A stretch of DNA of 64,000 nucleotides from an uncultured bacterium (GTDB lineage Bacteria > UBP14 > UBA6098). The position numbers were made by a program, and so were the translations under genes. The notes under the pieces are model-generated. The model was not told the DNA's origin, made no database searches, and saw only the letters and a program-made list of their open reading frames with translations. Where the stretch lies: positions 273,328 to 337,327 of the forward strand of contig CAYWOR010000001.1 of the NCBI GenBank assembly GCA_964459995.1. The letters run 5' to 3'. The stretch's first letter is position 1, and every line of letters starts with the position of its first letter. Positions 783-28,527 of this stretch are shown in pieces.

Positions 783-3700
783 ATGAAAAAGTTGAGCTTG
801 ATTTTATTATTCACGCTTTTCGTATCAATAGTTATTGCTGAAATTCCTTCTGCATGGCCGCTTGAAACGCTTATGGGAGTCGAGTTACTCGAATCCTCCA
901 ATGGCGAGTTCCCCCCCTGCGCAGATATTTTATCCTGCTATTTTAATGCGCAGTCGAACCGTATTCGGCTTCGGTTGCCGATGATGACAAATTTCATAAC
1001 CGGCGAGAACGAGTTTTCCTCGTATAATTGCGGAGTCCAAATCGAAATCGCCTATTCGGGCGCGCTGTCCGACGGCGTTCTCGGATTCTCGCATAACAAT
1101 ACGATATTTCTCGCCGTCGGACACGACGGACGAACCTCTGCATGGGCTTATAACGGTGCCCCTGTCGAGATTGACGAGGTCTATTTCGCGCCGGAATTTG
1201 GAATAATCGAAGCGGAGGTTCGTCCGCCGGCTGAAGCCGAAGGCTTCGGCGCGCGCCCTGTAGTGCGGGTCGAGACATTTGTGGACGGCAGAGCGGCTGA
1301 TATCGCACATTTCGACCCCGAACTCTTTCCGACATACACGACAAACTGCGCATTTATGCATCACGGCAATCAATCGCTGTCCTACACCGATGTTTTCCGC
1401 GGAAGATGGGACGACGGCCATGGCGGCCTTGCGAGCGGTTTTGACGAGGTTCTCGAAGTGCACCAGTTATATTCGATACCGGGGAATTTTCATATCAGCG
1501 GGACACTTATCTCTGCGGCGGCTTGGTATGACGCCGATTTCAATACATGGGTGGCAAACGGTGTTTCCGGAGGTTGGATAGAAGTTAACACAAGCGCATA
1601 CGCACAGCATATAATGCCCTTCGTGGCGGACGAGATGAACGACTGGGCTGTTAGCATCGAAAATGCCCTGGTTGACCATTTTTACGGGTTCACACCGCGA
1701 GTTGCATGGGTTCCGGAAAGGGTTTTTCTCGACGGCCCGGGCGGGGCATACCCCAACGCGGGTGTCAGCGATTATATCGCGGACAATTTTGCTGATAACG
1801 GGGTTTGGGCGATTATTCTCGACGATGACATTCATCTGGCGGGACATGACAATCACCAAATCCATTATTTAAACGGAAGCACGCTTAGATTAATACCACG
1901 CGACAACGATTTTACGGGCAAACTTCACGCTGGAGACGGCGGTGGCGCGCTCAATAATCTCGTCGGAATGGCGAACAATTCGTCGGGGCCTTATCGAATA
2001 GCTGTTTACGCCGATGATTGGGAAATGGCCGCCGAGATGGGCGAATGGGCATCGAGCATGCCGAACGCACTCGACGCTTATGAATGGATTATCCAGCAGT
2101 GTCACCTCGAATCGTCGTGGCTTTCGACATGGAAGCTCACCGACGCCGTTGTAAGCCCGAATTTCAACGGTGTAGGGGTTACACCCGCTTACGGCACACA
2201 CTCTTCGATTGGCGGGACCAACGGTTACGGCGGCGGGAATAACGCGTGGTACACACACTGGGCCAGCTATTCAAGCCCATCCGACCAGCACTCGCCGCAA
2301 TGGAATTTTGGATATATCTGGTTCGACGCAAAAAATAACCTTATGACCTGCCCAGATAACAACACCGCGCAGGCCGGATGGTATGTGCTTATGTCGAAAC
2401 TTTACGAGACCGGTTGGCATGACGGCATGGGCGGCTCGATTTCCGGCTGGCAGATGAAGCATTCGGCTCATATCAAGAACGCGAACGTTTATGCCGAAGC
2501 CGCGAGATGGGCTAACGGCGATCTCGGAACCGGGGTAAGCGCGACCTATGCCGATTGGGATCACAACGGCGATAACGAGCTAATCCTTCGCAACGGCAGA
2601 GTGCTTGCGGTTTTTAAACATATTGGCGGACGCGCGCATTGGATTTTCGGGCGCGGTGGCACGACAGGATGGGAAGGCTCGATTGCTGGCAACTGCAATG
2701 TCTATTGGGAAGGCACCGAGGGCGATTATAACGATGCTAATCATATCGCGCCTCTCTCCGATGTCAGCGTTGGCGGACACGATTATCAACATAGTCTCTA
2801 CAGCTCTGAAATCCTCTATAGCACAGCTGATTCTGCGGAAATAAGATTTACAAATTATTATGTCGATAAGCGAATAAAAGTGAAATCCGGTGAGCCATTT
2901 TTCCGTGTTTATTACGACACCGGCCCCGATCACATATATGTCAAATCCGGGTTCACGCCCGATTTGGTCGATATCATCTGGAACGCTGATATGAACAGGC
3001 TTTGGAGTGCGGGAAGTTACTGCGGTTTTCATAATCCGAACACACGCGCTTCTGCGGCGATAATTATGGGCACCGGTGGGGCGTCCCATTCCACCGATTT
3101 CCAGAGCACAATTCTTCGCGGCGACGAAATTTCCGGCTCGGGCGGTTTCGGGTTCCGTATTTTTGCGGGCGAATTGGCAGATGTCGCGGGGATGTCCTCG
3201 CCGACATTGGCGACACTTTCCGCCGGAGTTACCGATATTTATCCGCCGAAGGCCTACTATGCCAGCTATCACCCCGGTACCGGCGTAATGGAGATAGCTT
3301 TTGGGGACACTGTCAAGTATAACATGGTAACGATGGCAAATATCGGCATCGACCGCAACGGCAATGGAGCCTCCGATGTTACTCTCGACGGCACATGCAC
3401 GGTTATCAACACCTCGCACGCCAAGATTATACGGATTACTCTGTCGCCGGCAAAAAAGACCGCGGTTAACGCATTGGTTATGACAAATCCGCATCTATGG
3501 CTCTCCGCGGGCGCGTTTAGGGATTTGCGCGATAATCTGAACACAACACAGACCGCAACGGTCGGTTCGGGAGTTCAGTTGAATGTCCTGCCGGCGACGA
3601 GCATCACAATCGACGGCTATATAGACACATCGGAATGGCTTCCGGCGATGCATGTCATCGACGACCCGGACGATGATTCGCACTGGGGCGCTTCGAATGA

Positions 3701-4529
3701 GCTTTACGATCTTTATATGTTCTGGGATGATACCTATCTCTACCTCGGTCTTCACGGTGTAAAAGAGGCCGCGAGAAGCATGGTTGTGAATTCGTGGCTA
3801 ATTTACCTCGATACAGATTGGGGCGGCCCGAACGGCCAGTCCGATCTTCGCGAAATAAGTTCTTGGGACAGGAACGCGCAGTTCTCCGGCGGATTCCGCG
3901 CCGATATTCAATATGGCAGTTGGGGCGCGATGGATGGCGATGTCTGGCGTATCACAGGCCCGACTACCGCGGTGCAGATAACCGACGGCGTAATCGTGAA
4001 TACCGACCTAAGCGCGGCGCGTCCGGGAAGCGAAATCGCGATTAGTTGGAATTCTATCTACGGCATAGGCGAGGGTTTTGTAAATCCCCTGTCAACTATC
4101 GCTATTTGCGCGAGTTTGGCTGGAACGAACGATGACGACAATCTCGGCGGCGACTGCATTCCGAACCAGGCCTCGGCCTCATTTCCGGTTCTCGACAGTT
4201 TCTATGTGCAGGTCATCGATGCCGATGGCGACGGTCTTCCTGACGATTTCTTCGATGTCGTGGGAATTAGTGAACATGCTCCTTCTCGCGCCGAAAGTTT
4301 CGGAATACGAGCCTGCCCGAATCCCTTCAATTCTGCGGTTGAGATAATTACTTCGACTCGTAATAACTTGACAGTTGAGATTTTCGACATCAAAGGCCGG
4401 TTTGTCGATAGGGTCGAAATCGAGGCGGGAAGAGGAATTTGGCGTCCAAAAGAGGAAATGCCGACTGGAATATATTTTGCAAAAACAGGAAAAGGCTCCG
4501 ATTCGATAAAAATAACTTATCTAAAATAG
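783..4529 (+). CDS. Very large secreted protein (1248 aa) with T9SS type-A C-terminal sorting domain. N-terminal region carries GH57-like motifs (WVPERV, HHGNQ, LDDD). A CBM9-like module lies near residue ~950.
   Basis: Signal peptide MKKLSLILLFTLFVSIVIAE. C-terminus 'CPNPFNSAVEIITS..LTVEIFDIKGRFVD...GIYFAKT...KITYLK' matches Por_Secre_tail (TIGR04183-like). 'AWVPERVF' resembles GH57 conserved region III (WLTERV). 'GYIDTSEWLPAM...DLYMFWDDTYLYLGLH' is CBM9/DOMON-like. The catalytic assignment is weak. Confidence 0.55.
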   Translation: MKKLSLILLFTLFVSIVIAEIPSAWPLETLMGVELLESSNGEFPPCADILSCYFNAQSNRIRLRLPMMTNFITGENEFSSYNCGVQIEIAYSGALSDGVLGFSHNNTIFLAVGHDGRTSAWAYNGAPVEIDEVYFAPEFGIIEAEVRPPAEAEGFGARPVVRVETFVDGRAADIAHFDPELFPTYTTNCAFMHHGNQSLSYTDVFRGRWDDGHGGLASGFDEVLEVHQLYSIPGNFHISGTLISAAAWYDADFNTWVANGVSGGWIEVNTSAYAQHIMPFVADEMNDWAVSIENALVDHFYGFTPRVAWVPERVFLDGPGGAYPNAGVSDYIADNFADNGVWAIILDDDIHLAGHDNHQIHYLNGSTLRLIPRDNDFTGKLHAGDGGGALNNLVGMANNSSGPYRIAVYADDWEMAAEMGEWASSMPNALDAYEWIIQQCHLESSWLSTWKLTDAVVSPNFNGVGVTPAYGTHSSIGGTNGYGGGNNAWYTHWASYSSPSDQHSPQWNFGYIWFDAKNNLMTCPDNNTAQAGWYVLMSKLYETGWHDGMGGSISGWQMKHSAHIKNANVYAEAARWANGDLGTGVSATYADWDHNGDNELILRNGRVLAVFKHIGGRAHWIFGRGGTTGWEGSIAGNCNVYWEGTEGDYNDANHIAPLSDVSVGGHDYQHSLYSSEILYSTADSAEIRFTNYYVDKRIKVKSGEPFFRVYYDTGPDHIYVKSGFTPDLVDIIWNADMNRLWSAGSYCGFHNPNTRASAAIIMGTGGASHSTDFQSTILRGDEISGSGGFGFRIFAGELADVAGMSSPTLATLSAGVTDIYPPKAYYASYHPGTGVMEIAFGDTVKYNMVTMANIGIDRNGNGASDVTLDGTCTVINTSHAKIIRITLSPAKKTAVNALVMTNPHLWLSAGAFRDLRDNLNTTQTATVGSGVQLNVLPATSITIDGYIDTSEWLPAMHVIDDPDDDSHWGASNELYDLYMFWDDTYLYLGLHGVKEAARSMVVNSWLIYLDTDWGGPNGQSDLREISSWDRNAQFSGGFRADIQYGSWGAMDGDVWRITGPTTAVQITDGVIVNTDLSAARPGSEIAISWNSIYGIGEGFVNPLSTIAICASLAGTNDDDNLGGDCIPNQASASFPVLDSFYVQVIDADGDGLPDDFFDVVGISEHAPSRAESFGIRACPNPFNSAVEIITSTRNNLTVEIFDIKGRFVDRVEIEAGRGIWRPKEEMPTGIYFAKTGKGSDSIKITYLK

Positions 4530-18215: not shown

Positions 18216-21200
18216 ATGCTTCGTAAAATAATCGCGATAACTTTCATAATTTTCGCAATAACCGCTCTTGCCGAGCCTGTTGTTGTCGCACGGGATGTTC
18301 ATGGTTCGGCTTCCGGCCTTAACAATCAACGCACGATTGTCCGAAATTCGGGGGGGATTCTTTATTGCGCATATTCCGGTTTCGACGGCGGAAGCTACCA
18401 GATTTACATCGCGATGAGCAACGACAACGGCACTTCGTGGGTTCCAGATTGGCGTCAAATAACATTCGACACGACGAATCACTACCAGCCATCGCTCGTA
18501 ATCGATTCGCAGGACACTCTTCATTTAGTTTGGCGCGGGAACAGTGTTACAGGTTCCGATGCCAATCTGCTTTATGCCAAATGGCCGGCTTTCACAATCA
18601 CCACACTTTGCGCTTCATCCGGTTATCCGGGGGCATATTGCCCGAGTATGGCGGTCGGTCCGGATGACGATTTGCATGTTGTATGGACAGGTTGCCCTTC
18701 CGGATGGCAGGTTCGATATATGCGGTTCGATGTCGCCACCGGCAGTTGGGGACCGACGGAGAATGTCGGTGTGATGACCCCCTCGCGCTGGCCCTCTGTT
18801 GAAGCGGACACTGACGGCAACCCGCATGTGGTTTACCGAAACACTTTCGGAAGCCCAAGTCATTACCGTTGCTCGCATCGAATGAAGATAGGCGGGACAT
18901 GGCGCGGTTTCAACGGCGAAAACCGAGATACCCTCGATGTCTTCCTCGTTTCTGGAAGATCCTCGCTGGAATTCACGAGTATCTATATCGATCCGGACGA
19001 TAATCTTTACGCCACATGGCAATGGAACGATTATTTCGGAAGCCACCCCGACACGGTGCGTTTTCGGAAATTCAATCATTCTGCCTACACTTGGGGAGCG
19101 GAGACAGCGATATGGGGCAACGATAGCTCGGACAGCTACACGGCCTACAACGGCGATGTCGTAGTCGATTCTTCTGGTGTGATATATGTTTTCTACCATG
19201 ACAACGATTCTTGTTATGTTGCGATTTCCTACGACGGCGGTTTGAGCTTCGTCGGTGACAGTGTTGTCAGCCATGGTAATTACACTGCGCGTTATCCAAC
19301 CGCGCGCGGCTCGCTATGGCCGCCGTTCAACCGCACAGGCTCATGTATCGACTATGTTTATACTTGGAGCCACCCTGATAGCACGATAAAATATCTAATT
19401 TACGACAATACCTGCGGCCAAAAAGAAACAACCTTTGTGGTCGCGGAGACAGTTTTTCCGCCCTCCGGTGTGATTTTATCCTGCTCCGATCAATCTATAA
19501 TCACCTATATTGCTTGCCCGGAGCCTTGTTCGGTTTCGCTGTTCAGCTCTCCCGCGACTGTCGAGTATTACGATTCCGCCAGCGCGACGTGGCGGCCGGT
19601 TTCCGCGCGTGATCCCTCGGTGTGGGAGCCATACGAGGTTCCCGGTGCGGACTGGGTTTGGGGAAGTATGATGTCCGCGGGGCGTGGATATTGGTTTCGC
19701 GCCTTTATCGAGCATGACTGCACCGAGTTCTCGCGTGCTACGATAAAAATCCGTTGCGACAATCAGGCGTGGGTCTATTGCAACGACGAATTTGTCGATA
19801 CGACCAACGGCTATTCCGGCACCGGCCCATGGGGATGGCGGACGATGTTCGAGTTCGACCTGACCGAATTTCTCCATGGCGGGACAGACACTTTCACAAT
19901 CTTGGCGACAAATGTCAGCGGCTGGGCGGGTCTGGCCTTTCATATCTCGATAGAAAATCCCGGCGGATGTTGTGGTGAAATAGATCCGTGGTCGATAGAT
20001 TACGTCGTGAACGGCAGACACTATTCTTATGGCGATCCGGAGCTTGATTGGGACGGCGATTCGACGCTGATTTTCACCCCCATGCCGCCGGATACTTTCC
20101 AAAACGGCGACACAGTTTTCGCGAAGCTCCTTTTTGCCGCGGACACATGCGTAGGCGAGCTTGACACGGTTGTAACCAACGCGTCGGTATTGTTCTTCAT
20201 CGACCTTGCGCCGCCGGTGATTCAGCTTATCTCGCCGTCATTTGGCGATTTGACCTCACTGCCGGACAACTTTTTCTTCGGCCTTTGGGACAGCATATCC
20301 GGGTTGGACATAGCTTCGATTCGTGCCGATGTCGCCGGGTTGATTTTCGGCGATGGCGAATTCGGTGCGATTTACGCCGATTCGGTTTTCTCCTTCGCCG
20401 CTACCGATGTCGGAATTGTCTGGTCGCCGGGAGATTCAATAATCATTAGTATAAGCGCGTGGGATTCACCCGATTTGTGCGATCCGAATGCAGATACACT
20501 TCGTTGGGCTTGGTTCATGCGCGACCCGGAAGCTCCTATACCCTCGATTATCGAGCCGGAACCATGGATTTACAGCGCCTGCGCGCCGGAATCCATCATG
20601 GTAGAAATACTCGACCCCCACGGCATCGCCCCCGCGACCATCGAACTCGAGATAAACGGCGAGATTTTCACTGTCGATTCCCCCGAGATAAGCTGGGAAG
20701 AGCCGGTTCTGACCTATTTTGCAGTCGATGGCTGGCCGAATACCGACACGATACGAGTGTCCTTGAATCACGCCGAGGATATTTTCGGCAACGACATCTC
20801 CGCACCGCTACAGTGGGCTTTCATTGTCGATTACGAGCCACCCACCGCGGAGATGACCGCCCCCGCGGTAGAAATGACCCGCGATGTCCGTCAAGATATT
20901 GTTATTTGGATCTGCGACCGGCTGTCCGGCGTCGATCCCTCGACCGCATTACTGAACATCGACGGCGCGGAATTTCCTCTTGAAAACATGCAATGGACAC
21001 CCGATGCCCCCTGCGGCGAGCTTTATTTCCGCCCTGAGGATGTCGGCCTGATTTTCGTAAACGGCGAAACCGTGCATGTCTGCCTGACAATCGGCGACTC
21101 CCCAAATAGATGCGCGCCGAATGTCGCCGAATTCTGCTGGAGCTTCCTAATCGAGCCGGAGGTCGGTTGTGAGGTCGTGCCGAATCCTTTTACGCCCAAC

Positions 21201-21461
21201 GCCGATAATATCAACGATGTCGCGATGTTTTTCTATCCCAACATGTTCAGCGAGCCGGCGGAGCTGGTTGTATTCGACACGCGCAACAGAGAGGTCTGGA
21301 GATCGAGCATCCCGACACAGGAAGACATTGTGTCCGCCCCCGGAAGACTTTGGGATGGCCGGCGCAAAGACGGCACTCAGGCTGATTCCGGAATCTACCT
21401 TTATGTTCTGACCTCCGGCGGCAGGGTGATCTGCAATGGAACACTGTTGCTATTGAGGTGA
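18216..21461 (+). CDS. Secreted 1081-aa protein: N-terminal BNR/sialidase-like beta-propeller-type repeats, central jelly-roll (PA14-like?) region, C-terminal T9SS type B sorting domain
   Basis: Signal peptide. 'SNDNGTSW' Asp-box-like and repeated 'LH.VW' blades. C-terminus 'VVPNPFTPNADNINDVAMFF....LVVFDTRNREVWRS....WDGRRKDG.....GIYLYVL.....ICNGTLLLLR' matches the type B (TIGR04131/CHU_C-like) pattern. Confidence 0.55.
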   Translation: MLRKIIAITFIIFAITALAEPVVVARDVHGSASGLNNQRTIVRNSGGILYCAYSGFDGGSYQIYIAMSNDNGTSWVPDWRQITFDTTNHYQPSLVIDSQDTLHLVWRGNSVTGSDANLLYAKWPAFTITTLCASSGYPGAYCPSMAVGPDDDLHVVWTGCPSGWQVRYMRFDVATGSWGPTENVGVMTPSRWPSVEADTDGNPHVVYRNTFGSPSHYRCSHRMKIGGTWRGFNGENRDTLDVFLVSGRSSLEFTSIYIDPDDNLYATWQWNDYFGSHPDTVRFRKFNHSAYTWGAETAIWGNDSSDSYTAYNGDVVVDSSGVIYVFYHDNDSCYVAISYDGGLSFVGDSVVSHGNYTARYPTARGSLWPPFNRTGSCIDYVYTWSHPDSTIKYLIYDNTCGQKETTFVVAETVFPPSGVILSCSDQSIITYIACPEPCSVSLFSSPATVEYYDSASATWRPVSARDPSVWEPYEVPGADWVWGSMMSAGRGYWFRAFIEHDCTEFSRATIKIRCDNQAWVYCNDEFVDTTNGYSGTGPWGWRTMFEFDLTEFLHGGTDTFTILATNVSGWAGLAFHISIENPGGCCGEIDPWSIDYVVNGRHYSYGDPELDWDGDSTLIFTPMPPDTFQNGDTVFAKLLFAADTCVGELDTVVTNASVLFFIDLAPPVIQLISPSFGDLTSLPDNFFFGLWDSISGLDIASIRADVAGLIFGDGEFGAIYADSVFSFAATDVGIVWSPGDSIIISISAWDSPDLCDPNADTLRWAWFMRDPEAPIPSIIEPEPWIYSACAPESIMVEILDPHGIAPATIELEINGEIFTVDSPEISWEEPVLTYFAVDGWPNTDTIRVSLNHAEDIFGNDISAPLQWAFIVDYEPPTAEMTAPAVEMTRDVRQDIVIWICDRLSGVDPSTALLNIDGAEFPLENMQWTPDAPCGELYFRPEDVGLIFVNGETVHVCLTIGDSPNRCAPNVAEFCWSFLIEPEVGCEVVPNPFTPNADNINDVAMFFYPNMFSEPAELVVFDTRNREVWRSSIPTQEDIVSAPGRLWDGRRKDGTQADSGIYLYVLTSGGRVICNGTLLLLR

Positions 21462-21462
21462 T

Positions 21463-24090
21463 ATGAAAAAGTTAGCGATAACACTTCTTCTGATTTCTAC
21501 AACCTGCCTTCTCTCTGCGCCGGTTCGCATTGCGCGCGATGTCGCAGGCACAGCCTCCGGTCTCAACAATCAACGCATGATTGTGCGCGATTCGGCGGGC
21601 AACCTTTATGTCGCCTATGAAGCAATTATCGGCACAGATAGCGAAATATATATTGCCCGAAGCACCGACAACGGCGCGACCTGGAATTCTGCATGGGCTA
21701 ATTTGACCTCGAGTTTGAGCAATCATCACCGAATGCCCACTATGGCCATCGATGCCTTCGATACCCTCCATATCATTTGGCGTGGCAATACAACCGGCTC
21801 CGACGCCAATCTGCTTTATACACGCTATCCCAACCCATCGATTACAACCATTTGCACATATTCTGCTTATCCGGGTGCCTTTTGCCCATCGCTGGCGGTC
21901 GGGCCGAATAACAACCTCCACGCCGCATGGAGTGGATGCCCCTCGAGCTGGCTTGTGCGATATTCGATGTTCAACAGAGCGACAGCTTCCTGGGGGCCGC
22001 ACGAGGATGTCGGCCCAAGAACCCCTTCGAGATGGCCCTCCATCGACATCGATCAGTCGGGTCGCCCTCATGTTGTCTATCGCAACAACTATTCGAGCAA
22101 CTATCATATCGCCCATCGAATGAAGGACGGCGCCGCGTGGATAGGTTTCAACGGTCAAAACCACGATTCGCTGGATTTCGACGACATTGCCGCCGCCGTC
22201 GAATACACATCTCTTTTCATCGATTCGCTGGAGAATCTTCACGCGATTTGGCAATGGATGGCCGGTTTTATGACCAACGCCGACAGCATCCGATATCGAA
22301 CCTATTGGAATTCCACCTCGTCATGGAGCGGTCTTCGGACGATTTTCGGGAACACCGCGGCAGATCCGCGAGTTTCATATTCCGGCGATGTCGTCGTGGA
22401 CGACCATGGCTATGTGTATATCTTCTATCACGATGACGATTCGATTTTTTGCAGAATTTTCTCGAACTTAGGCGCGACTTTTTATCTCGACACTCTTTTG
22501 GTCAATAACGCAAAAGCACGTTTCCCGAACGCCCGCGGAAGCAAATGGCCTGCCTTCAACCGCCCGCAATATCCCTGTATCGACTATGTTTACACATGGG
22601 CGCATCCCGACAGCCCCGTGGTCTCCCTAATGTTCGACCGGCTTTGCCTCGAACCTGAGGATGTCGATACGACCAAAATCTGTGCGGAAGCGCTTTTCCC
22701 GGCGGAGGGGAGTTTCACATCCTGTCCGGATCAGCGTATCGATTTCTTCATCGGCTGTTGCGAGTTCGGCGATACGATCAAGATAACCTCTACCGATACG
22801 ACCGTCGAGTATTACGACTCGACTTCGGGCACATGGGTGCCGGCCATCGCCCTCGACCCAACCCCATGGGGCACTTATTGGGTGCATCTCGACACGGACA
22901 GCTGTAACTGGGTCTGGAGCGAATATCCTGCATTGGGGAGTCATGGCAACTGGTTCCGTGTTTTGGTCGAAAGCGGTTGTTCATCGATCGACACGGCCTT
23001 CATTCGCATTCAGGTCGATAATCAGGGCACAATTTACGCCAACGGCACCTATATCGACACGACCCACGGCAACCCCGGAAGCGGCTCCACCGGCTGGCGT
23101 ATGCTTCACGAATTTGACCTAACCGAGTATTTCCACGGCGGAGTGGATACATTGACCATCATGGGATACAACTCCGGCGGCTATGCGGGTATGTTGTTCG
23201 AGCTTTATGTCATCTGTGCCGGTGCGTGTTGCGGCCAAATCGCTCCGATGACAATCGATTTTTCGGTCGATGGCGATCATTTTACAATTCTCGACCCGGA
23301 ACTCTCCTGGGACGGCGATTCGATTCTAACCTTCATCCCCATCGCTCCGGACACCTTCGAGCATGGCGACACCGTTCACGCCTGCCTCGAAAATGTCGCG
23401 GACACCTGCACCGGCTGGCTTGAAGACCCGGTTTGCATCACATTCTATGTCGATCTTCAGCCGCCGGCGATATGGGGCATCGACCCCGCGCCGGATTCAA
23501 TGGCGCCTTTCGTGCCGGAGTTTTTCGACTTCTATCTCGCCGATTCCATGGCCGGTCTCGACACCGCCTCGATTGTTTTCACCGTGGATGGTGTCGAGCA
23601 AACCATCTCCCTGACACCATCCGGCGGCAGTTGGTTCGTCCAATGGGCGCCGGACACCTCGCTCTATAATCGCGGAGATACACTCGAACTATGCGTTACC
23701 GCCGCCGATTCGGCCAATTACTGCCCGCCCAATGTCCTCGATTCGTGCTGGTTCTACTATGTTACACCCTGCAGGCCGATGGATATAAGCGTGATTTGCC
23801 CGTTACCATGTTTCAGTTTCGTCGCGTGTTCGAGCGCGTCGGTTGTTTTCGCGGTTTCCGACACTTCCGGTTTCGGAATCGACACCACGCGCGCCTATTT
23901 CACGGTCATCGAGCACCATCCCTCCACAATAGCTGACACGAGCCGTTTTGCGACACCATCGCCCTTTATTCTTTTCGATTTTTCCTCGGACACCATGGTC
24001 GCGCTATGGCGGAATTGGTCGGACGGCGACAGCGTGATAGTTATTCTCGACAGCCTCTTCTCCCTCGACGGCTGTCCCACGACGCCATAG
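21463..24090 (+). CDS. Tandem paralog of the preceding gene (875 aa). Same N-terminal architecture but no T9SS C-terminal domain. Possibly 3'-truncated.
   Basis: Near-identical N-terminal blocks ('ARDVAGTASGLNNQRMIVRDSAGNLYVAY' versus 'ARDVHGSASGLNNQRTIVRNSGGILYCAY'). Ends '...LDGCPTTP*' immediately before the AT-rich island. Confidence 0.5.
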   Translation: MKKLAITLLLISTTCLLSAPVRIARDVAGTASGLNNQRMIVRDSAGNLYVAYEAIIGTDSEIYIARSTDNGATWNSAWANLTSSLSNHHRMPTMAIDAFDTLHIIWRGNTTGSDANLLYTRYPNPSITTICTYSAYPGAFCPSLAVGPNNNLHAAWSGCPSSWLVRYSMFNRATASWGPHEDVGPRTPSRWPSIDIDQSGRPHVVYRNNYSSNYHIAHRMKDGAAWIGFNGQNHDSLDFDDIAAAVEYTSLFIDSLENLHAIWQWMAGFMTNADSIRYRTYWNSTSSWSGLRTIFGNTAADPRVSYSGDVVVDDHGYVYIFYHDDDSIFCRIFSNLGATFYLDTLLVNNAKARFPNARGSKWPAFNRPQYPCIDYVYTWAHPDSPVVSLMFDRLCLEPEDVDTTKICAEALFPAEGSFTSCPDQRIDFFIGCCEFGDTIKITSTDTTVEYYDSTSGTWVPAIALDPTPWGTYWVHLDTDSCNWVWSEYPALGSHGNWFRVLVESGCSSIDTAFIRIQVDNQGTIYANGTYIDTTHGNPGSGSTGWRMLHEFDLTEYFHGGVDTLTIMGYNSGGYAGMLFELYVICAGACCGQIAPMTIDFSVDGDHFTILDPELSWDGDSILTFIPIAPDTFEHGDTVHACLENVADTCTGWLEDPVCITFYVDLQPPAIWGIDPAPDSMAPFVPEFFDFYLADSMAGLDTASIVFTVDGVEQTISLTPSGGSWFVQWAPDTSLYNRGDTLELCVTAADSANYCPPNVLDSCWFYYVTPCRPMDISVICPLPCFSFVACSSASVVFAVSDTSGFGIDTTRAYFTVIEHHPSTIADTSRFATPSPFILFDFSSDTMVALWRNWSDGDSVIVILDSLFSLDGCPTTP

Positions 24091-24229
24091 GGCTAAATTC
24101 CCCCCCTTTGTTCTGAACCCCCCTTTCGACTCGGATATGACGTTGTTTGCCCGATCGTGATGCTGAAAGTTTGTCCTTTGGAATGCGAAATCGCCTGAAA
24201 GGTCATCATCGGCGGCATCATATCGATTT

Positions 24230-24700
24230 TTTATTGTATTATATTAAATATAGATTTATTAATATTTGAAATGAAATGAATCAAATCAGATTATAATTGA
24301 TTCATATAAATATTATATCTAACAATAATAGATTTGAATTTATTAATAAACAAATATTATTGCTTAATTATAATAATTTAGTAAATGATAATAAATATGA
24401 ATTAAATGATTAGGAAATTTTATTAAATGATATTAAAATTAAAACAAATAAAAAAGTAATATGAATAGATAGAAAATCAAAAAGATTAAAAAAATAAAAA
24501 TTATTAAAAGATAGAAATATAAAAATAATGAAAATAGAATTAATATGAAACAATTGAAAGAAATAATAAACAAAAAGAAAAATAAAATTAACAAATAAAA
24601 AATTGAGATGAAAGAGAAAAGAATCGTAATCACTGCAAAGAAAAACGAAATAAATGAATAGAAAAACGTAATAAACGAAAATTTAGCGAACTGTGGCTAA
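24230..24700. repeat. Extremely AT-rich (>85% A+T by eye), purine-skewed low-complexity island inside a ~50-55% GC contig. No credible ORF.
   Basis: C is nearly absent for ~400 bp. The + strand 24440-24700 is almost pure A/G/T ('aaaagattaaaaaaataaaaattattaaaagatagaaatat...'). Small palindrome tgaatcaa...ttgattca at ~24279-24306. Confidence 0.8.
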
Positions 24701-25060
24701 ACCATCGAGCGAATTTTGCGTTAAAATCCCTTTTGACGGAAAAGACAGATGATGCACGACCCAAATATCGCAAAATATTCTCCATATGTCTCGATTTCGG
24801 TCTCAGGGTTCTCAAATCGAGCAAAATGGATTGCTAATTTGTCCAACACGATTACAAAAGTAGGCAAAGAATTGAAGTCATTGCTAATCAATGAGTTCGA
24901 GGAGTCGCTCCACCGAAAAAAGAAATCGCATTGTTTAATAAAAATATTGCCGCGGCATTTGACGCAAACGAAAATTCGATATTGATACCCCACGCACCCT
25001 TATCTCTTGACAAAACCACCAGCGAACATTAGCTTTCCTCAAACAAACAATGGAGGTAAA

Positions 25061-25579
25061 ATGAAAAATCTCATCCTAATTCTGTGCATTTTCGCGCTGG
25101 TCGCCGCTCCGGCGATGGCCAAGAAAAAGGGGCATATCTCGGTCAACGCTAAAATGGAGCTTTACAACCCCCCCGGCGACGATCTTATCGCCCCAATGTT
25201 CACAGTGCAGGCGCGTTACCGTATGAGCGCTTTCTTCGCCGCAGTCGGCAACGCCTCCTGGACAAAATACAAAATTGCCGGTAACGATGTTACCTTCGTC
25301 CCGCTTTCTGTCGATGGCGAGCTTCATCCGATGGGCAAAAGCACCTTCGACCCATATCTCGGAGCCGGTATCGGCGCAAATTACCGTCAGGTCGAAACAC
25401 AAGACCCCGAAATCAATATCGGCGCTGATCTTCTCGGCGGCCTTATATGGAAGCCCGAAGGATATTTCGGCGTAGATGTCAGCCTTAGATATCGTATCGA
25501 AGACATCGCCAACCCAAGCAAATCCGGCTCGTGGACAGTCGGCGGCGGCGTTACCGGAAGCTGGGAAAAGGATCTATAA
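25061..25579 (+). CDS. Small secreted protein (~172 aa), likely small OM beta-barrel (OmpW/OMP_b-brl-like). Start refined to the ATG with a GGAGG SD.
   Basis: SD GGAGG at 25053-25057. Signal peptide MKNLILILCIFALVAAPAMA. Alternating hydrophobic beta pattern, Gly-rich C-terminus. Confidence 0.4.
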   Translation: MKNLILILCIFALVAAPAMAKKKGHISVNAKMELYNPPGDDLIAPMFTVQARYRMSAFFAAVGNASWTKYKIAGNDVTFVPLSVDGELHPMGKSTFDPYLGAGIGANYRQVETQDPEINIGADLLGGLIWKPEGYFGVDVSLRYRIEDIANPSKSGSWTVGGGVTGSWEKDL

Positions 25580-25738: not shown

Positions 25739-26629
25739 ATGAAAAGAGTTGTGATAATATTTGTCTTGCTTCTCGCCGGTCTTTCTTTCGGGCAGACCAT
25801 CTACGGCAATTCCGCGCTTCCTCCGGGGGCTTTTCTTTGGCTGTCAGGCGATGCCCGAACCGAAGCCATGGCTACCACAGCCACCGCCGATGGCGGAATC
25901 GCATCGGGATGGGCAAATCCTGCCGCGCTTTTCGAGAATCGCGATGTTTCAGCAGGAGCGACATATAGCTATGTTCGTAGCAAAACAAATAACTCAGGCC
26001 TTTTCGCCACGAAACGATTCGGCTCATGGGCAGGCGCGATGAGGTTCTTCCTCGTCAATTCCAACGAAATTGAAGCCCGCACCGGCCCGACATCACAGCC
26101 GGATTACCTCTTCGATACCCATCAGCTTTACACCCAGTTCACAATAGCGAAATCATTCACCGATTTCGTCTCATTCGGCGGTTCAGCCAAATGGATTCAC
26201 GAAAGAATCGACCAGTTCGACCGCGAAGGTTGGGTTTTCGACATCGGCCTCGCCGGGGAATACGAGTTTATCAAAGGCGGTGTCGCGGTGAATAATTTCG
26301 GCGGCAAACAGGTCTATTTCGATCAATACCGCGAAAATTACCCGACAACCTACCGCATGGGTCTCGCCGGCAAAATCCTCGATTACGGCCTCGTCGCGGT
26401 CGATTATGTTAAACCCGATCTTCTCTCAGGCTACACAGCGATTGGCATCGAGGGATATTTGCACGATATGATCACCCTCCGCGCGGGATACACCCCCGGC
26501 CACGACACACGCAACATCTCAGCCGGAATCGGCGTCAAATACGCCGGTCTCAACCTCGATTACGCCCTGACAAACTTCTCGCAAAACCTCGGAATAAGCC
26601 ATCAGGTAACCCTCAGCTTCAGAAATTGA
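25739..26629 (+). CDS. Putative outer-membrane beta-barrel protein, PorP/SprF-like candidate (296 aa)
   Basis: Signal peptide. 'WANPAALFEN' (NPA motif) near the N-terminus. Size fits the PorP/SprF class. Located ~4.3 kb downstream of a type B CTD gene (18216-21461), with the 21463-24090 paralog, the AT-rich island and the 25061-25579 gene in between. C-terminus '...VTLSFRN'. Confidence 0.4.
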   Translation: MKRVVIIFVLLLAGLSFGQTIYGNSALPPGAFLWLSGDARTEAMATTATADGGIASGWANPAALFENRDVSAGATYSYVRSKTNNSGLFATKRFGSWAGAMRFFLVNSNEIEARTGPTSQPDYLFDTHQLYTQFTIAKSFTDFVSFGGSAKWIHERIDQFDREGWVFDIGLAGEYEFIKGGVAVNNFGGKQVYFDQYRENYPTTYRMGLAGKILDYGLVAVDYVKPDLLSGYTAIGIEGYLHDMITLRAGYTPGHDTRNISAGIGVKYAGLNLDYALTNFSQNLGISHQVTLSFRN

Positions 26630-28527
26630 GGACTTTCGCGCGCATTTTTTTGACCCTTCTCCTTTTTGCATCCGCGATTATCGCGCAGGATTCACTAATT
26701 TGGCCGTTAGCTTGCAAACCCCAGCTCACAAGCACTTTCGGCGAGTTTCGCGTCGGGCATTTCCATGCCGGAGTGGATTTCCGAACACCACAAGGCGAGG
26801 GAATGCCAATATCCGCGCCCCGCAACGGCTCCATTGTCCGCGTTCGAGAAACTCCATGGGGCTACGGCAAAGTGATTTATTATCAAATGGACAATGGCAT
26901 AACCGCTGTATTTGCGCATCTTTCGGCATTTGGCGATACTGTGGCAAGTCTGATGAAAACCGAGAAATACCGCAACAAATCCAACACTGCGGAACTTTGG
27001 TTCAAGCAGGGCGAGGTGAAATACCGTAAAGGCGATATAATAGCCTATTCCGGAAGCACCGGCGCAGGTTCGGCGCATTTGCATTTCGAGCTTCGTGCAG
27101 GAATGGACAAACCGGTCAACCCAATGGATTTCGGCTATATCACGAAAGACACCCTCGCTCCGGAGATACGCGAGATATGGCTTATCCCGCGAAGCGACAA
27201 CTCCCAGATCGAGGGCAAGCCTACACCATACAAACTCGAATCCTCCGCCTTCCGCTCGAAAAGGCCGGAAATCCACGCGCACGGCAAAATCGCAATCGCG
27301 ATAGACATCCGCGATAGAGAATGCGATGCCAACGCCAATACCTTCGGTGCATATAAAATCCGCGCAATCGCGAACGCAGACACAATATTCAGTTTTCTCG
27401 CCGACACGATTAATTATTCGACCACACGGCAAATCGGCCTCCTATACGAACTTGGGCATCAAGAAGAATTCGGCTATCGCAAACCCACTCTCCGCCTCGA
27501 AAAGCCGGAAGCCGCTCAAATCACCATGTTGAAAGGCAGATCATCGGGTATTCTCGAAGTCATCGACGACACGTTCGAGGTTACCATCGAAGTCGCCGAT
27601 TATACAGGCAATAAATCGGTAGCTCGCCTCGTTATTAAGCCTCAAACTCCCAAAACAGAAAGTTTAGACGCCGTTGATTCGATTGTCGATCACGCGATAA
27701 TATTTTCCCATAGAATATTCGGAGCAGAAAATTTAATTCTTTATACTGATTTCGAAAAACCGCCCGCAAAGCCCCCCATTATAATCCGCAATGACCAGAC
27801 AATACTCCCAAATTCGATAAGTAAAACAGCCTTCAGCTTCCGACTTTTTGATGTCGAGCCTTCGGAAGAGCTGAAAATCGCGGTCGATGGCCGCGAATAC
27901 ACGCACACGCCGAGGATTTGGCGTTTTGAGTCCGGCATGAAATACGACCTCGTCGGCGGATGGCGGATCGATATCCCCGAAGGCGGCGTCTATAGCCCCT
28001 TTGTGGCCACAGATACACTTCTGACGGACTCCAAGGGAGAGTTTCTTCGGCTCGATCCCGCAGGGGTGGTTCTGCGCCGTCCAGCGATTATCAGCGCGGA
28101 TACATCGAAAATTAGCGCTCCGAAAGGCAAAGCCTGTATCGTGCGAATTTGGAAATCGGACACCTTTTTTGTCAGCAATGAGGTCGATAAAAATGGACGT
28201 TTGAGTGCAGGCGTAAATGCACTCGGAATTTTTGCTCTTGCGAAAGACACTCTTGCGCCTAAATTGAAATTCGGAATCGCTGACAGCGCGATTGTTGTTG
28301 AGTTGCTCGAAGCGAATATCACCGACAATCTTTCCGGGTTCTCGAACGATGTGCTTCCGAGAAGTTTCATCGGCGGAGAATGGATTCCGACCGAATATGA
28401 TCCGGAAAAAGCGTCGCTTACTGTCGATGTGCGGAATTTATCGCCGGGGCTTTATTTTTGGCGGGTCGAGGCGGTCGATGTTTGCGGAAATGCCGTCGCC
28501 GATAGCATCAGATTTGTGAAAAAATAG
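26626..28527 (+). CDS. M23 family metallopeptidase (LytM-like) with ~450-aa C-terminal Ig-like/beta-rich extension
   Basis: Signal peptide. 'HFHAGVDFRTPQGEGMPISAPRNGSIV' (HxxxD) and 'GSTGAGSAHLHFELR' (HxH) M23 zinc-site motifs. Confidence 0.65.
   Translation: MRTFARIFLTLLLFASAIIAQDSLIWPLACKPQLTSTFGEFRVGHFHAGVDFRTPQGEGMPISAPRNGSIVRVRETPWGYGKVIYYQMDNGITAVFAHLSAFGDTVASLMKTEKYRNKSNTAELWFKQGEVKYRKGDIIAYSGSTGAGSAHLHFELRAGMDKPVNPMDFGYITKDTLAPEIREIWLIPRSDNSQIEGKPTPYKLESSAFRSKRPEIHAHGKIAIAIDIRDRECDANANTFGAYKIRAIANADTIFSFLADTINYSTTRQIGLLYELGHQEEFGYRKPTLRLEKPEAAQITMLKGRSSGILEVIDDTFEVTIEVADYTGNKSVARLVIKPQTPKTESLDAVDSIVDHAIIFSHRIFGAENLILYTDFEKPPAKPPIIIRNDQTILPNSISKTAFSFRLFDVEPSEELKIAVDGREYTHTPRIWRFESGMKYDLVGGWRIDIPEGGVYSPFVATDTLLTDSKGEFLRLDPAGVVLRRPAIISADTSKISAPKGKACIVRIWKSDTFFVSNEVDKNGRLSAGVNALGIFALAKDTLAPKLKFGIADSAIVVELLEANITDNLSGFSNDVLPRSFIGGEWIPTEYDPEKASLTVDVRNLSPGLYFWRVEAVDVCGNAVADSIRFVKK

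Follow-up and report, generated by a model that had tools for sequence, protein, structure and literature searches.

What is DNA with hardly any G or C doing between two conserved genes of a bacterium whose surrounding genome is half G and C, and how does it persist? The question is raised by a locus of an uncultured bacterium (GTDB lineage UBP14, UBA6098; GenBank assembly GCA_964459995.1, contig CAYWOR010000001.1, positions 273,328 to 337,327 of the forward strand), in which a 970-bp spacer separates the gene for an 875-aa secreted-type protein from a gene for an outer-membrane protein (OMP). The whole stretch of 64,000 nucleotides that we analyzed is called the window below, and positions refer to it unless another locus is named. 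A first-pass annotation, made from the letters of the window alone, had noted an AT-rich, purine-skewed and non-coding island in this spacer and had listed as candidates a foreign insertion remnant, a DNA unwinding element or origin, a curved promoter region and an assembly chimera. Here we report that degenerate 21-bp units in tandem make up the island, which is present in several independent assemblies, and that its alleles in related genomes are at chance-level identity and yet have the same length, compositional gradient and period, the unit being exactly 21 bp in every allele examined. On balance, we lean towards reading the island as a non-coding AT-rich minisatellite that renews itself and whose effect, if any, is physical.

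A sharply bounded AT-rich island

The anomalous core extends from 24225 to 24690 and has 12–17% GC within a window of 50.0% GC. The switch at its left edge is as abrupt as the first-pass annotation had described it: the GC fraction drops from 0.52 (24200–24224) to 0.08 (24225–24249), stays between 0.08 and 0.24 per 25 bp up to about position 24624, giving 12.2% GC over 24225–24624, and regains about 0.40 by 24690. The extent of 24100–24990 assigned to the island earlier is too wide, as the left flank of the spacer (24091–24224, non-coding, with a C7 and a C6 run) has 50% GC and the right flank (24691–24995, also non-coding) 40% GC. In the entire window, the island is the only segment below 25% GC; the next-lowest segments found in a 100-bp scan have 29–31% GC and are 100–190 bp long each. 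Its duplex stability, by nearest-neighbour values, is also the lowest in the 64 kb: the island has −1.02 kcal/mol per bp and the next-lowest segment −1.26, whereas the mean is −1.42±0.05.

The composition is polar. The left half of the island (24225–24450, 11.5% GC) contains A and T in nearly equal number (107 A, 93 T; 55% purine), whereas the right half (24451–24690, plus strand, 17% GC) is rich in A (153 A, 46 T, 29 G, 12 C; 76% purine), so that the purine skew claimed for the island as a whole, like the skew towards A, holds for the right half and not for the left. The related claim that some 250 bp of the top strand are almost without C was borne out: between 24375 and 24624, C occurs 5 times in 250 bp, and 73% of the bases are purines.

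A 21-bp tandem array

The periodicity of the island had been overlooked. A degenerate tandem array spans 24218–24680 and consists of about 22 units of exactly 21 bp, arranged head to tail in a single unbroken register; stacked in 21-nt rows, it shows no indel and no register slip. The autocorrelation of base identity peaks at lags of 21, 42 and 63 (z = 7.3, 7.5 and 8.0, respectively), with z at most 2.8 at every other lag up to 80. The best lag is 21 in 40 of 54 sliding windows, and both TRF and a second repeat finder returned periods and spacings of 21, 42 and 63. A blind scan at lag 21 recovered the array as its single match in the window and, when the non-duplicate loci fetched for comparison were included, returned the islands plus one weak match in coding DNA (locus L025, 2500–2710, identity 0.42).

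The most similar pair of adjacent units lies at the right edge of the array (24639–24679; TRF period 21, 2.0 copies, 90% matches) and probably arose by the latest duplication. The autocorrelation is local, fading by lags of about 170–200; when base profiles over the 21 columns are compared between the two halves of an island, they are uncorrelated in each of three alleles (r = 0.07, −0.12 and 0.13). Therefore, the array has no single iteron-like motif: likeness is limited to neighbouring units, and no motif runs through the whole array. Arrays of boxes for Fur, ArgR and OmpR were considered by eye only and dropped because the units share no motif.

The island in independent assemblies

We designate the window allele W (locus L002 is identical to it), with a second strain, W2, represented by loci L001, L003 and L004. 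Two sister alleles are designated S1 (L009 and L018; the pair L009 and L018 is denoted S1 and S1b where the two are compared) and S2 (L025), and L005, L006 and L007 are the outgroups. Four independent assemblies from four samples, three by JGI and one by Logan, all carry the 970-bp spacer; one is identical to the window, and three represent the second strain, 99% identical in the flanking genes. The W and W2 islands are separated by 16 point substitutions, with no indel inside the array, and diverged islands occupy the same position in L009, L018 and L025. In addition, the exact OMP protein is encoded on contigs of many samples.

Because four assemblies from two strains and three alleles carry it, the island is not an artefact, and the probability that we attach to an assembly chimera is close to nil. 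Some observations do point that way. Two short contigs of the sister lineage (L010:1–20 and L011:1) have their first bases at the right edge of the island or immediately beyond it, as if short-read assembly tended to stop there, and in close outgroups the spacer is short and of normal GC. The latter finding had been put forward beforehand as a sign of misassembly; the relatives indeed have such an ordinary spacer, but the conclusion drawn from it fails in view of the four assemblies and three alleles, which also dispose of the chimera proposed by the first-pass annotation.

Distribution of the insert and comparison of its alleles

The OMP orthologues form a graded series of relatedness, in which all syntenic relatives, with or without the island, retain the OMP promoter in position and sequence (25007–25035, plus strand; TTGACA at 25007–25012, 17-nt spacing, TAGCTT at 25030–25035). 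In the outgroups L005/L006 and L007, with an 875-aa protein that is 67–70% identical, the two genes are separated by a spacer of just 72–112 bp, which has normal GC and contains this promoter. S1 and S2, in which the 875-aa protein is 83% identical to that of W, have a spacer of about 1.1 kb with an island of their own of about 450 bp and 8–20% GC. Pairwise protein identities alone suggest the grouping ((W,(S1,S2)),(L005,L006)), with L007 outside. Given this grouping, a single gain in the ancestor of W, S1 and S2 is the most parsimonious history. The insert, some 0.85–1.1 kb of non-coding DNA, is specific to one small clade of uncultured FCB-group bacteria; the nearest named genomes are those of UBP14, Zixibacteria, Fermentibacteria and Eisenbacteria, all uncultured members of the FCB group.

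The restriction of the insert to one lineage, syntenic outgroups being without it, agrees with one part of the earlier proposal of a foreign insertion remnant; as to the other part, no donor, mobile-element hallmark or second copy was found. No terminal repeats are conserved across the alleles, a 12-nt pair in W being no better than chance and having no counterpart in S1 or S2, and the fetched loci contain no second copy of the insert. Comparison with plasmid sequences yielded only composition-driven matches of 67–74% to AT-rich plasmids, and comparison with phage sequences yielded no match. An apparent short direct repeat at the ends of the W insert, TCGGATATGA and TCGATATTGA, noticed by eye, could not be confirmed, the outgroup spacers being too diverged to map the junctions.

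The 21-bp period recurs in L009 (z = 5.5, 4.4 and 3.4 at lags 21, 42 and 63) and in L025 (z = 3.3 and 5.1 at lags 21 and 42), and the gradient from mixed A/T to A-rich is common to W, L009 and L025. The islands of the three alleles are 463, 444 and 459 bp long and lie about 317, 311 and 313 bp, respectively, upstream of the OMP promoter, as measured in the window from the right edge of the island to the −35 box. The W and S1 islands can be aligned near the left edge only (ATATCG..TTTATT..TAGATTT). No homology was detected between the flanks of W and those of S1 and S2; in particular, the left flank of W cannot be aligned to its counterpart in the sister alleles, which is 290 bp long.

At the species level, S1 and S2 form a single group, with flanking proteins 97–98% identical and 4-fold degenerate sites 10–15% diverged. 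Their spacers represent two alleles that are 28–57% diverged (L009:1057–2105 versus L025 ~2880–3945, equivalent to 24091–25006 of the window). This divergence sets in sharply at the stop codon that ends the 875-aa gene and ceases as sharply at the −35 box of the OMP gene; between these bounds, it is highest in the island and declines on both sides. Conversely, L009 and L018 differ at about 15% of 4-fold sites, but by only 1.4–2.3% in the spacer flanks and 7.4% in the island. Between W and W2, divergence amounts to 3.4% at 4-fold sites, 2.2% in the left flank, 0.9% in the left half of the island, 5.8% in its right half and 5.9% in the right flank, and the segment 24996–25060, which includes the OMP promoter, has no substitutions. 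The history of the spacer is thus decoupled from that of the flanking genes, owing either to recombinational allele replacement or to a locally raised mutation rate. The island usually evolves faster than its own flanks.

Three further observations concern the sister alleles. A block of about 55 bp, TAAATCCCCATAACCGGAGCCTCGGAGGGCAGTCCTCCCGCC, in L009:1098–1146 and in the left flank of L025, is 6% diverged versus 29–44% for the rest of that flank; it holds a GGAGG..CCTCC hairpin, is absent from the window allele and may be a terminator or another functional site. In the right flank of S2, L025:3894–3926 forms a 33-bp inverted match of 91% identity with L025:2634–2666, in the interior of the 875-aa gene. 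Finally, a second local hypervariable patch lies in the homologue of an M23-peptidase gene, which in L009 is the gene after the 296-aa gene: a 100-bp block (L009:4327–4427, about 27200–27300 of the window) sets L025 apart from L009/L018 by 30–35% and L009 from L018 by 11%, in surroundings diverged by 0–10%.

How the array may be maintained

Ungapped similarity between S1 and S2 occurs at offsets of −65, −44, −23, −2, 19 and 40, and between W and S1 at offsets of 233, 149, 86 and −40; each set is congruent modulo 21, which suggests shifts by whole units between the deeper alleles. The orthologous offset is not the best one. Moreover, similarity within the array of W (0.57–0.59) exceeds the similarity of W to S1 (0.48–0.51). 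The units of W have not decayed to the level of orthologous similarity and therefore appear to have been duplicated or homogenized after the alleles split, in steps of 21 bp. In close strains, differences between GC and AT are balanced (5 versus 5 and 7 versus 10) at about 14% GC, suggesting that the island is at a compositional equilibrium of its own, and they are likewise balanced in the spacer flanks at 40–47% GC.

In the account that we favour, if only somewhat, the insert would have been gained once by the ancestor of the clade, between the end of the secreted-protein operon and an intact OMP promoter. The array would then have been reshaped continually, either through slippage during replication or because neighbouring units exchange unequally or convert each other, with turnover consisting of gains and losses of whole units and local re-homogenization. 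Such turnover would renew the 21-bp period and the low-GC equilibrium while the primary sequence is erased. The array would not act through a protein product, a structured RNA, an origin function or a sequence-specific binding motif. Any physical effect would come from about 450 bp of very easily melted DNA, a likely lure for AT-preferring nucleoid proteins, and from setting the end of the upstream operon about 1 kb away from the OMP promoter. The best-supported part of this mechanism is the one that concerns the maintenance of the array, by slippage or unequal exchange.

Several observations weigh against a self-renewing minisatellite. Bacterial genomes usually delete useless DNA, and about 1 kb of non-coding DNA has been kept in all three alleles; the near-constant island length and promoter distance, despite unalignable sequence, hint at selection. 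Copy number is equal in close strain pairs, unlike in a typical variable-number tandem repeat (VNTR): array length does not differ between W and W2, which have no indel between them inside the array, and differs by 1 bp between S1 and S1b. The window array keeps its register over 460 bp despite many A/T homopolymers. A direct test for substitutions that neighbouring units might have templated gave 22 of 48 variant sites at lag 21, versus 13–21 of 47–49 at control lags. The left half of the island, at 0.9% between strains, lies below the 3.4% at 4-fold sites. Finally, it is not obvious how a purely neutral repeat would explain the same A-rich strand polarity in all alleles.

A different explanation is that the array consists of selected sites for protein binding or wrapping, phased every two helical turns, with selection acting on period, length and composition and not on sequence. 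Such an array might serve as a platform on which a nucleoid protein or silencer that forms filaments and prefers AT-rich DNA nucleates, or it might insulate the operon and the OMP promoter from each other, topologically or in their transcription. The period of exactly 21 bp, or two turns, in three alleles at chance-level identity agrees with this proposal, as do the conserved island length and distance to the promoter, the retention of about 1 kb of non-coding DNA by every member of the clade and the low duplex stability. S1 and S2 also share a phase-coherent unit profile (r = 0.58, a value reached by 0 of 300 shuffles), but this match is possibly residual homology, and the correlation of the unit profiles of W and S2 is not significant. 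Furthermore, no unit motif is common to the island halves or to W and S2, dyad symmetry or a conserved core was not seen, and no gene for a DNA-binding protein occurs within 10 kb, where the neighbours encode secreted proteins, OMPs, a peptidase and pilus proteins. Relatives cope with a spacer of 72–112 bp and the same promoter, and the island evolves at or above the neutral rate. We regard selected binding or wrapping sites as unlikely.

A more specific form of this idea is a phase-locked scaffold of about 450 bp of easily melted DNA, with two helical turns per unit, in which the architecture is selected, the sequence is free and whole alleles are exchanged horizontally within the species. 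We hold this to be quite unlikely, and equally so that such a scaffold would serve as a nucleation or wrapping platform for a nucleoid protein or as an insulator of supercoils or transcription, which, if true, would represent a class of cis-element not known from bacteria. Nevertheless, a physical cis-element of some kind is kept alive, as a minority view, by the retention of the insert, the conserved lengths and polarity, the lack of register slip in the window array and the slow left half. By its AT-richness, the island would be a candidate target of xenogeneic silencers.

Coding, RNA and promoter signals

The island has stop codons in all six frames and no 3-bp periodicity (z = 0.3 at lag 3), and the phase of mismatches is flat (26/26/26, 37/41/33 and 74/63/71). 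The ORFs that do occur are short or are poly-Phe/Ile/Leu shadow ORFs. Of the open reading frames (ORFs) in the right flank, 24721–24993 (minus strand) and 24749–24985 (plus strand) are both broken in the second strain by a +1 indel at about 24863. They match no Pfam family, do not resemble the ORF that occupies the same place in the sister allele and show a flat mismatch phase; they are not real genes. The initial impression that the island has no coding capacity, with shadow ORFs only, is thereby upheld, and a coding region, heptad repeat or pseudogene was rejected on the closed frames, the missing Pfam match, the frameshift between strains and the dissimilarity of the sister ORFs.

A unit of 21 bp does equal 7 codons, and the island could in principle be a decayed coding region of heptad repeats, or another gene from a very AT-rich donor. 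The lineage specificity of the insert would fit such an origin, as would stop-to-stop ORFs of 90–145 codons in the flanks, those in the left flanks of S1 and S2 having some peptide-level resemblance by eye that was not scored. Beyond the absence of coding periodicity and of open frames, however, neither a Pfam nor a phage match was found, and the plasmid matches were driven by composition. In addition, the similarity of the W units to each other is greater than that of W to S1, so that the period must have been renewed, at least in W, after any coding function was lost. We consider a coding ancestry very improbable.

Searches for a structured RNA in three alleles gave no Rfam match at the gathering threshold and, at E≤1, one 23-bit chance match outside the island. 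Folding energies of the island on both strands are no better than those of shuffles (z = −0.71 and −0.49), and a structured RNA was accordingly rejected. Promoter-like matches in the three alleles are at chance level (8 versus 5.6, 7 versus 5.7 and 4 versus 5.2 expected), terminator counts do not exceed chance either, and the best match is not conserved, on which grounds a conserved promoter or terminator inside the island was also rejected.

The island might still be transcribed on the plus strand, as an unstructured non-coding RNA that is AU-rich and then A-rich, or as the leader of an OMP mRNA made from a distal promoter; such an RNA could offer A-rich-RNA-binding proteins a landing pad or soak them up as a sponge. 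The A-rich, purine-rich polarity lies on the sense strand of both flanking genes in all alleles, and the left edge of the S1 island carries a near-consensus promoter, TTGATA-N18-TATAAT (an 11/12 match). The left edge is also the one block that W and S1 still have in common and the part in which strains have diverged most slowly. However, S2 lacks the strong match of S1 and W has it only in a weak form, within a set of promoter-like matches that occur at chance level. Nor does the island belong to an Rfam family at E≤1, fold better than shuffles or contain a repeated RNA motif such as GGA, and the OMP gene has its own conserved proximal promoter. Taken together, these points make a functional transcript distinctly unlikely.

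Origin and curvature signals

Extremely AT-rich, easily melted DNA with tandem units of iteron-like length is what one might expect of a replication origin, a DNA unwinding element or a partition centromere, be it chromosomal or part of an integrated plasmid or phage. In the island, however, DnaA boxes are at chance level, with no perfect box, one with a single mismatch (0.2 expected) and two with at most two mismatches (3.2 expected). GC skew in the window is positive at 1–18 kb and 28–64 kb and negative at 18–30 kb, with no change of sign at the island and the same sign well before and after it. The locus contains neither rep, par or integrase genes nor remnants of them, the ORFs of the spacer have no Pfam match, and no iteron motif is common to the units. 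Phage sequences gave no match and plasmid sequences composition-driven matches only, and the contigs, of 119–770 kb, provide a chromosomal context. On these grounds, the suggestion of an origin or DNA unwinding element made in the first-pass annotation was abandoned, and we assign an origin or centromere a very small probability indeed. In a distant relative of the lineage UBP14 UBA6098 (L008:2986–6534, the same as L014), an OMP homologue lies about 1.7 kb downstream of dnaA. The 189 bp of 25% GC right after that gene (L008 4433–4621) are probably the oriC region of that genome; they have no 21-bp period and are unrelated to the island.

A curved promoter or UP region had been suggested as well. 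In a wedge model (shuffles matched in composition), the end-to-end ratio of the island is 0.725 versus 0.762±0.121 for shuffles, and L009 and L025 are within 1–2 sd. The helical-phase signal is weak (z = 2.6–2.9 at lag 10 and 1.6 at lag 11). With shuffle-like curvature and an end some 317 bp upstream of the −35 box, the island does not bear out this suggestion.

Flanking genes and spacer flanks

The upstream gene (21463–24090, plus strand) encodes the 875-aa protein, which has no Pfam match, and is the last in a run of genes for large proteins with CBM48, BNR and CHU_C domains, the last of these a signal of the type IX secretion system (T9SS). It had been thought possibly truncated; it is in fact full length, as residues 1–875 align end to end with orthologues (gene calls of 856–876 aa), and the C-terminal motif LDSLFSLDGC..TP is common to relatives. 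Within this run, the gene for a 1081-aa BNR/CHU_C protein (18216–21461, plus strand) is represented in the second strain by two genes (542 and 538 aa, L001:3105–6401), the split being due either to a frameshift or nonsense pseudogene or to an assembly error.

Right after the stop codon of the 875-aa gene, C7 and C6 runs, CCCCCCCTTTGTTCTGAACCCCCC, occupy 24100–24124, and a similar motif of C runs occurs in the short spacer of the outgroup L005. A long, imperfect candidate terminator hairpin at about 24152–24225 abuts the T6 run that opens the island; together they may form the terminator of the upstream operon, and this region folds no better than shuffles.

The downstream gene (25061–25579, plus strand) encodes a 172-aa outer-membrane beta-barrel protein of the family OMP_b-brl, OmpW-like according to one source, and is preceded by a ribosome-binding site, GGAGG, at 25052–25056. 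Further downstream, the start of the M23-peptidase gene (26626–28527) is called differently, for a product of 625 aa in one pair of assemblies and of 546 aa in another; the longest ORF in the window has 633 aa, with a TTG start.

Significance and comparison with known systems

If the island is only a self-renewing minisatellite, it is a clean natural case of a repeat period and an extreme composition that outlive the sequence in a bacterial genome. If, on the other hand, it is true that the architecture is selected, the island would be a cis-element of an uncultured FCB-group lineage that acts physically and independently of its sequence, within a non-coding spacer whose evolutionary history is decoupled from that of the flanking genes. 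In practical terms, very AT-rich islands in metagenome assemblies can be real and yet break short-read contigs.

A full-text search of the literature for AT-rich arrays with a 21-bp period in bacteria returned nothing relevant, and the island is best placed by comparison with better-known kinds of DNA. H-NS, MvaT, Lsr2 and Rok are, according to two reviews, xenogeneic silencers of AT-rich horizontally acquired islands (PMC8476142, PMC4466236). By analogy, our island, which is lineage-specific and far exceeds the host genome in AT content, would be favoured as a target by such proteins; it differs from the islands that they silence in having no genes to silence and in being periodic. We know of no silencer family for this uncultured lineage.

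Iteron origins and partition centromeres (parC, sopC, tubC) likewise consist of tandem units, of 11–43 bp and often helically phased, at AT-rich DNA. In contrast to them, the island lacks a motif common to its units, has neither a rep nor a par gene next to it, contains DnaA boxes no more often than by chance, comprises 22 units instead of the usual handful and lies in a chromosome between housekeeping-type genes. Curved A-tract DNA and UP elements are, like the island, rich in A/T and located upstream of a promoter, and the period of the island is a multiple of the helical repeat; its signal at 10–11 bp is weak (z = 1.6–2.9), however, its curvature is that of shuffles and its distance from the −35 box is about 317 bp.

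The replacement of intergenic regions between conserved genes, known as horizontal regulatory transfer or promoter-region switching, has been described in E. coli. S1 and S2 resemble such cases, with two spacer alleles that are 28–57% diverged within one species-level group and have sharp bounds. Here, however, the proximal promoter is not replaced, both alleles keep the same architecture, and a raised mutation rate is an alternative.

With bacterial intergenic minisatellites and VNTRs, which have units of about 10–100 bp and change by slippage or unequal exchange, the island shares the head-to-tail arrangement, the fixed unit length and the greatest likeness between neighbours, as well as signs of whole-unit gain and loss, a duplication at the edge, the lack of coding function and an evolution faster than that of the flanks. 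It departs from them in that its units are about 55% identical, versus the usual 80% or more, and in that close strains do not differ in copy number. It stands apart, too, in its 12–17% GC within a genome of 50% GC, in its polar gradient and in an architecture that has outlasted sequence identity.

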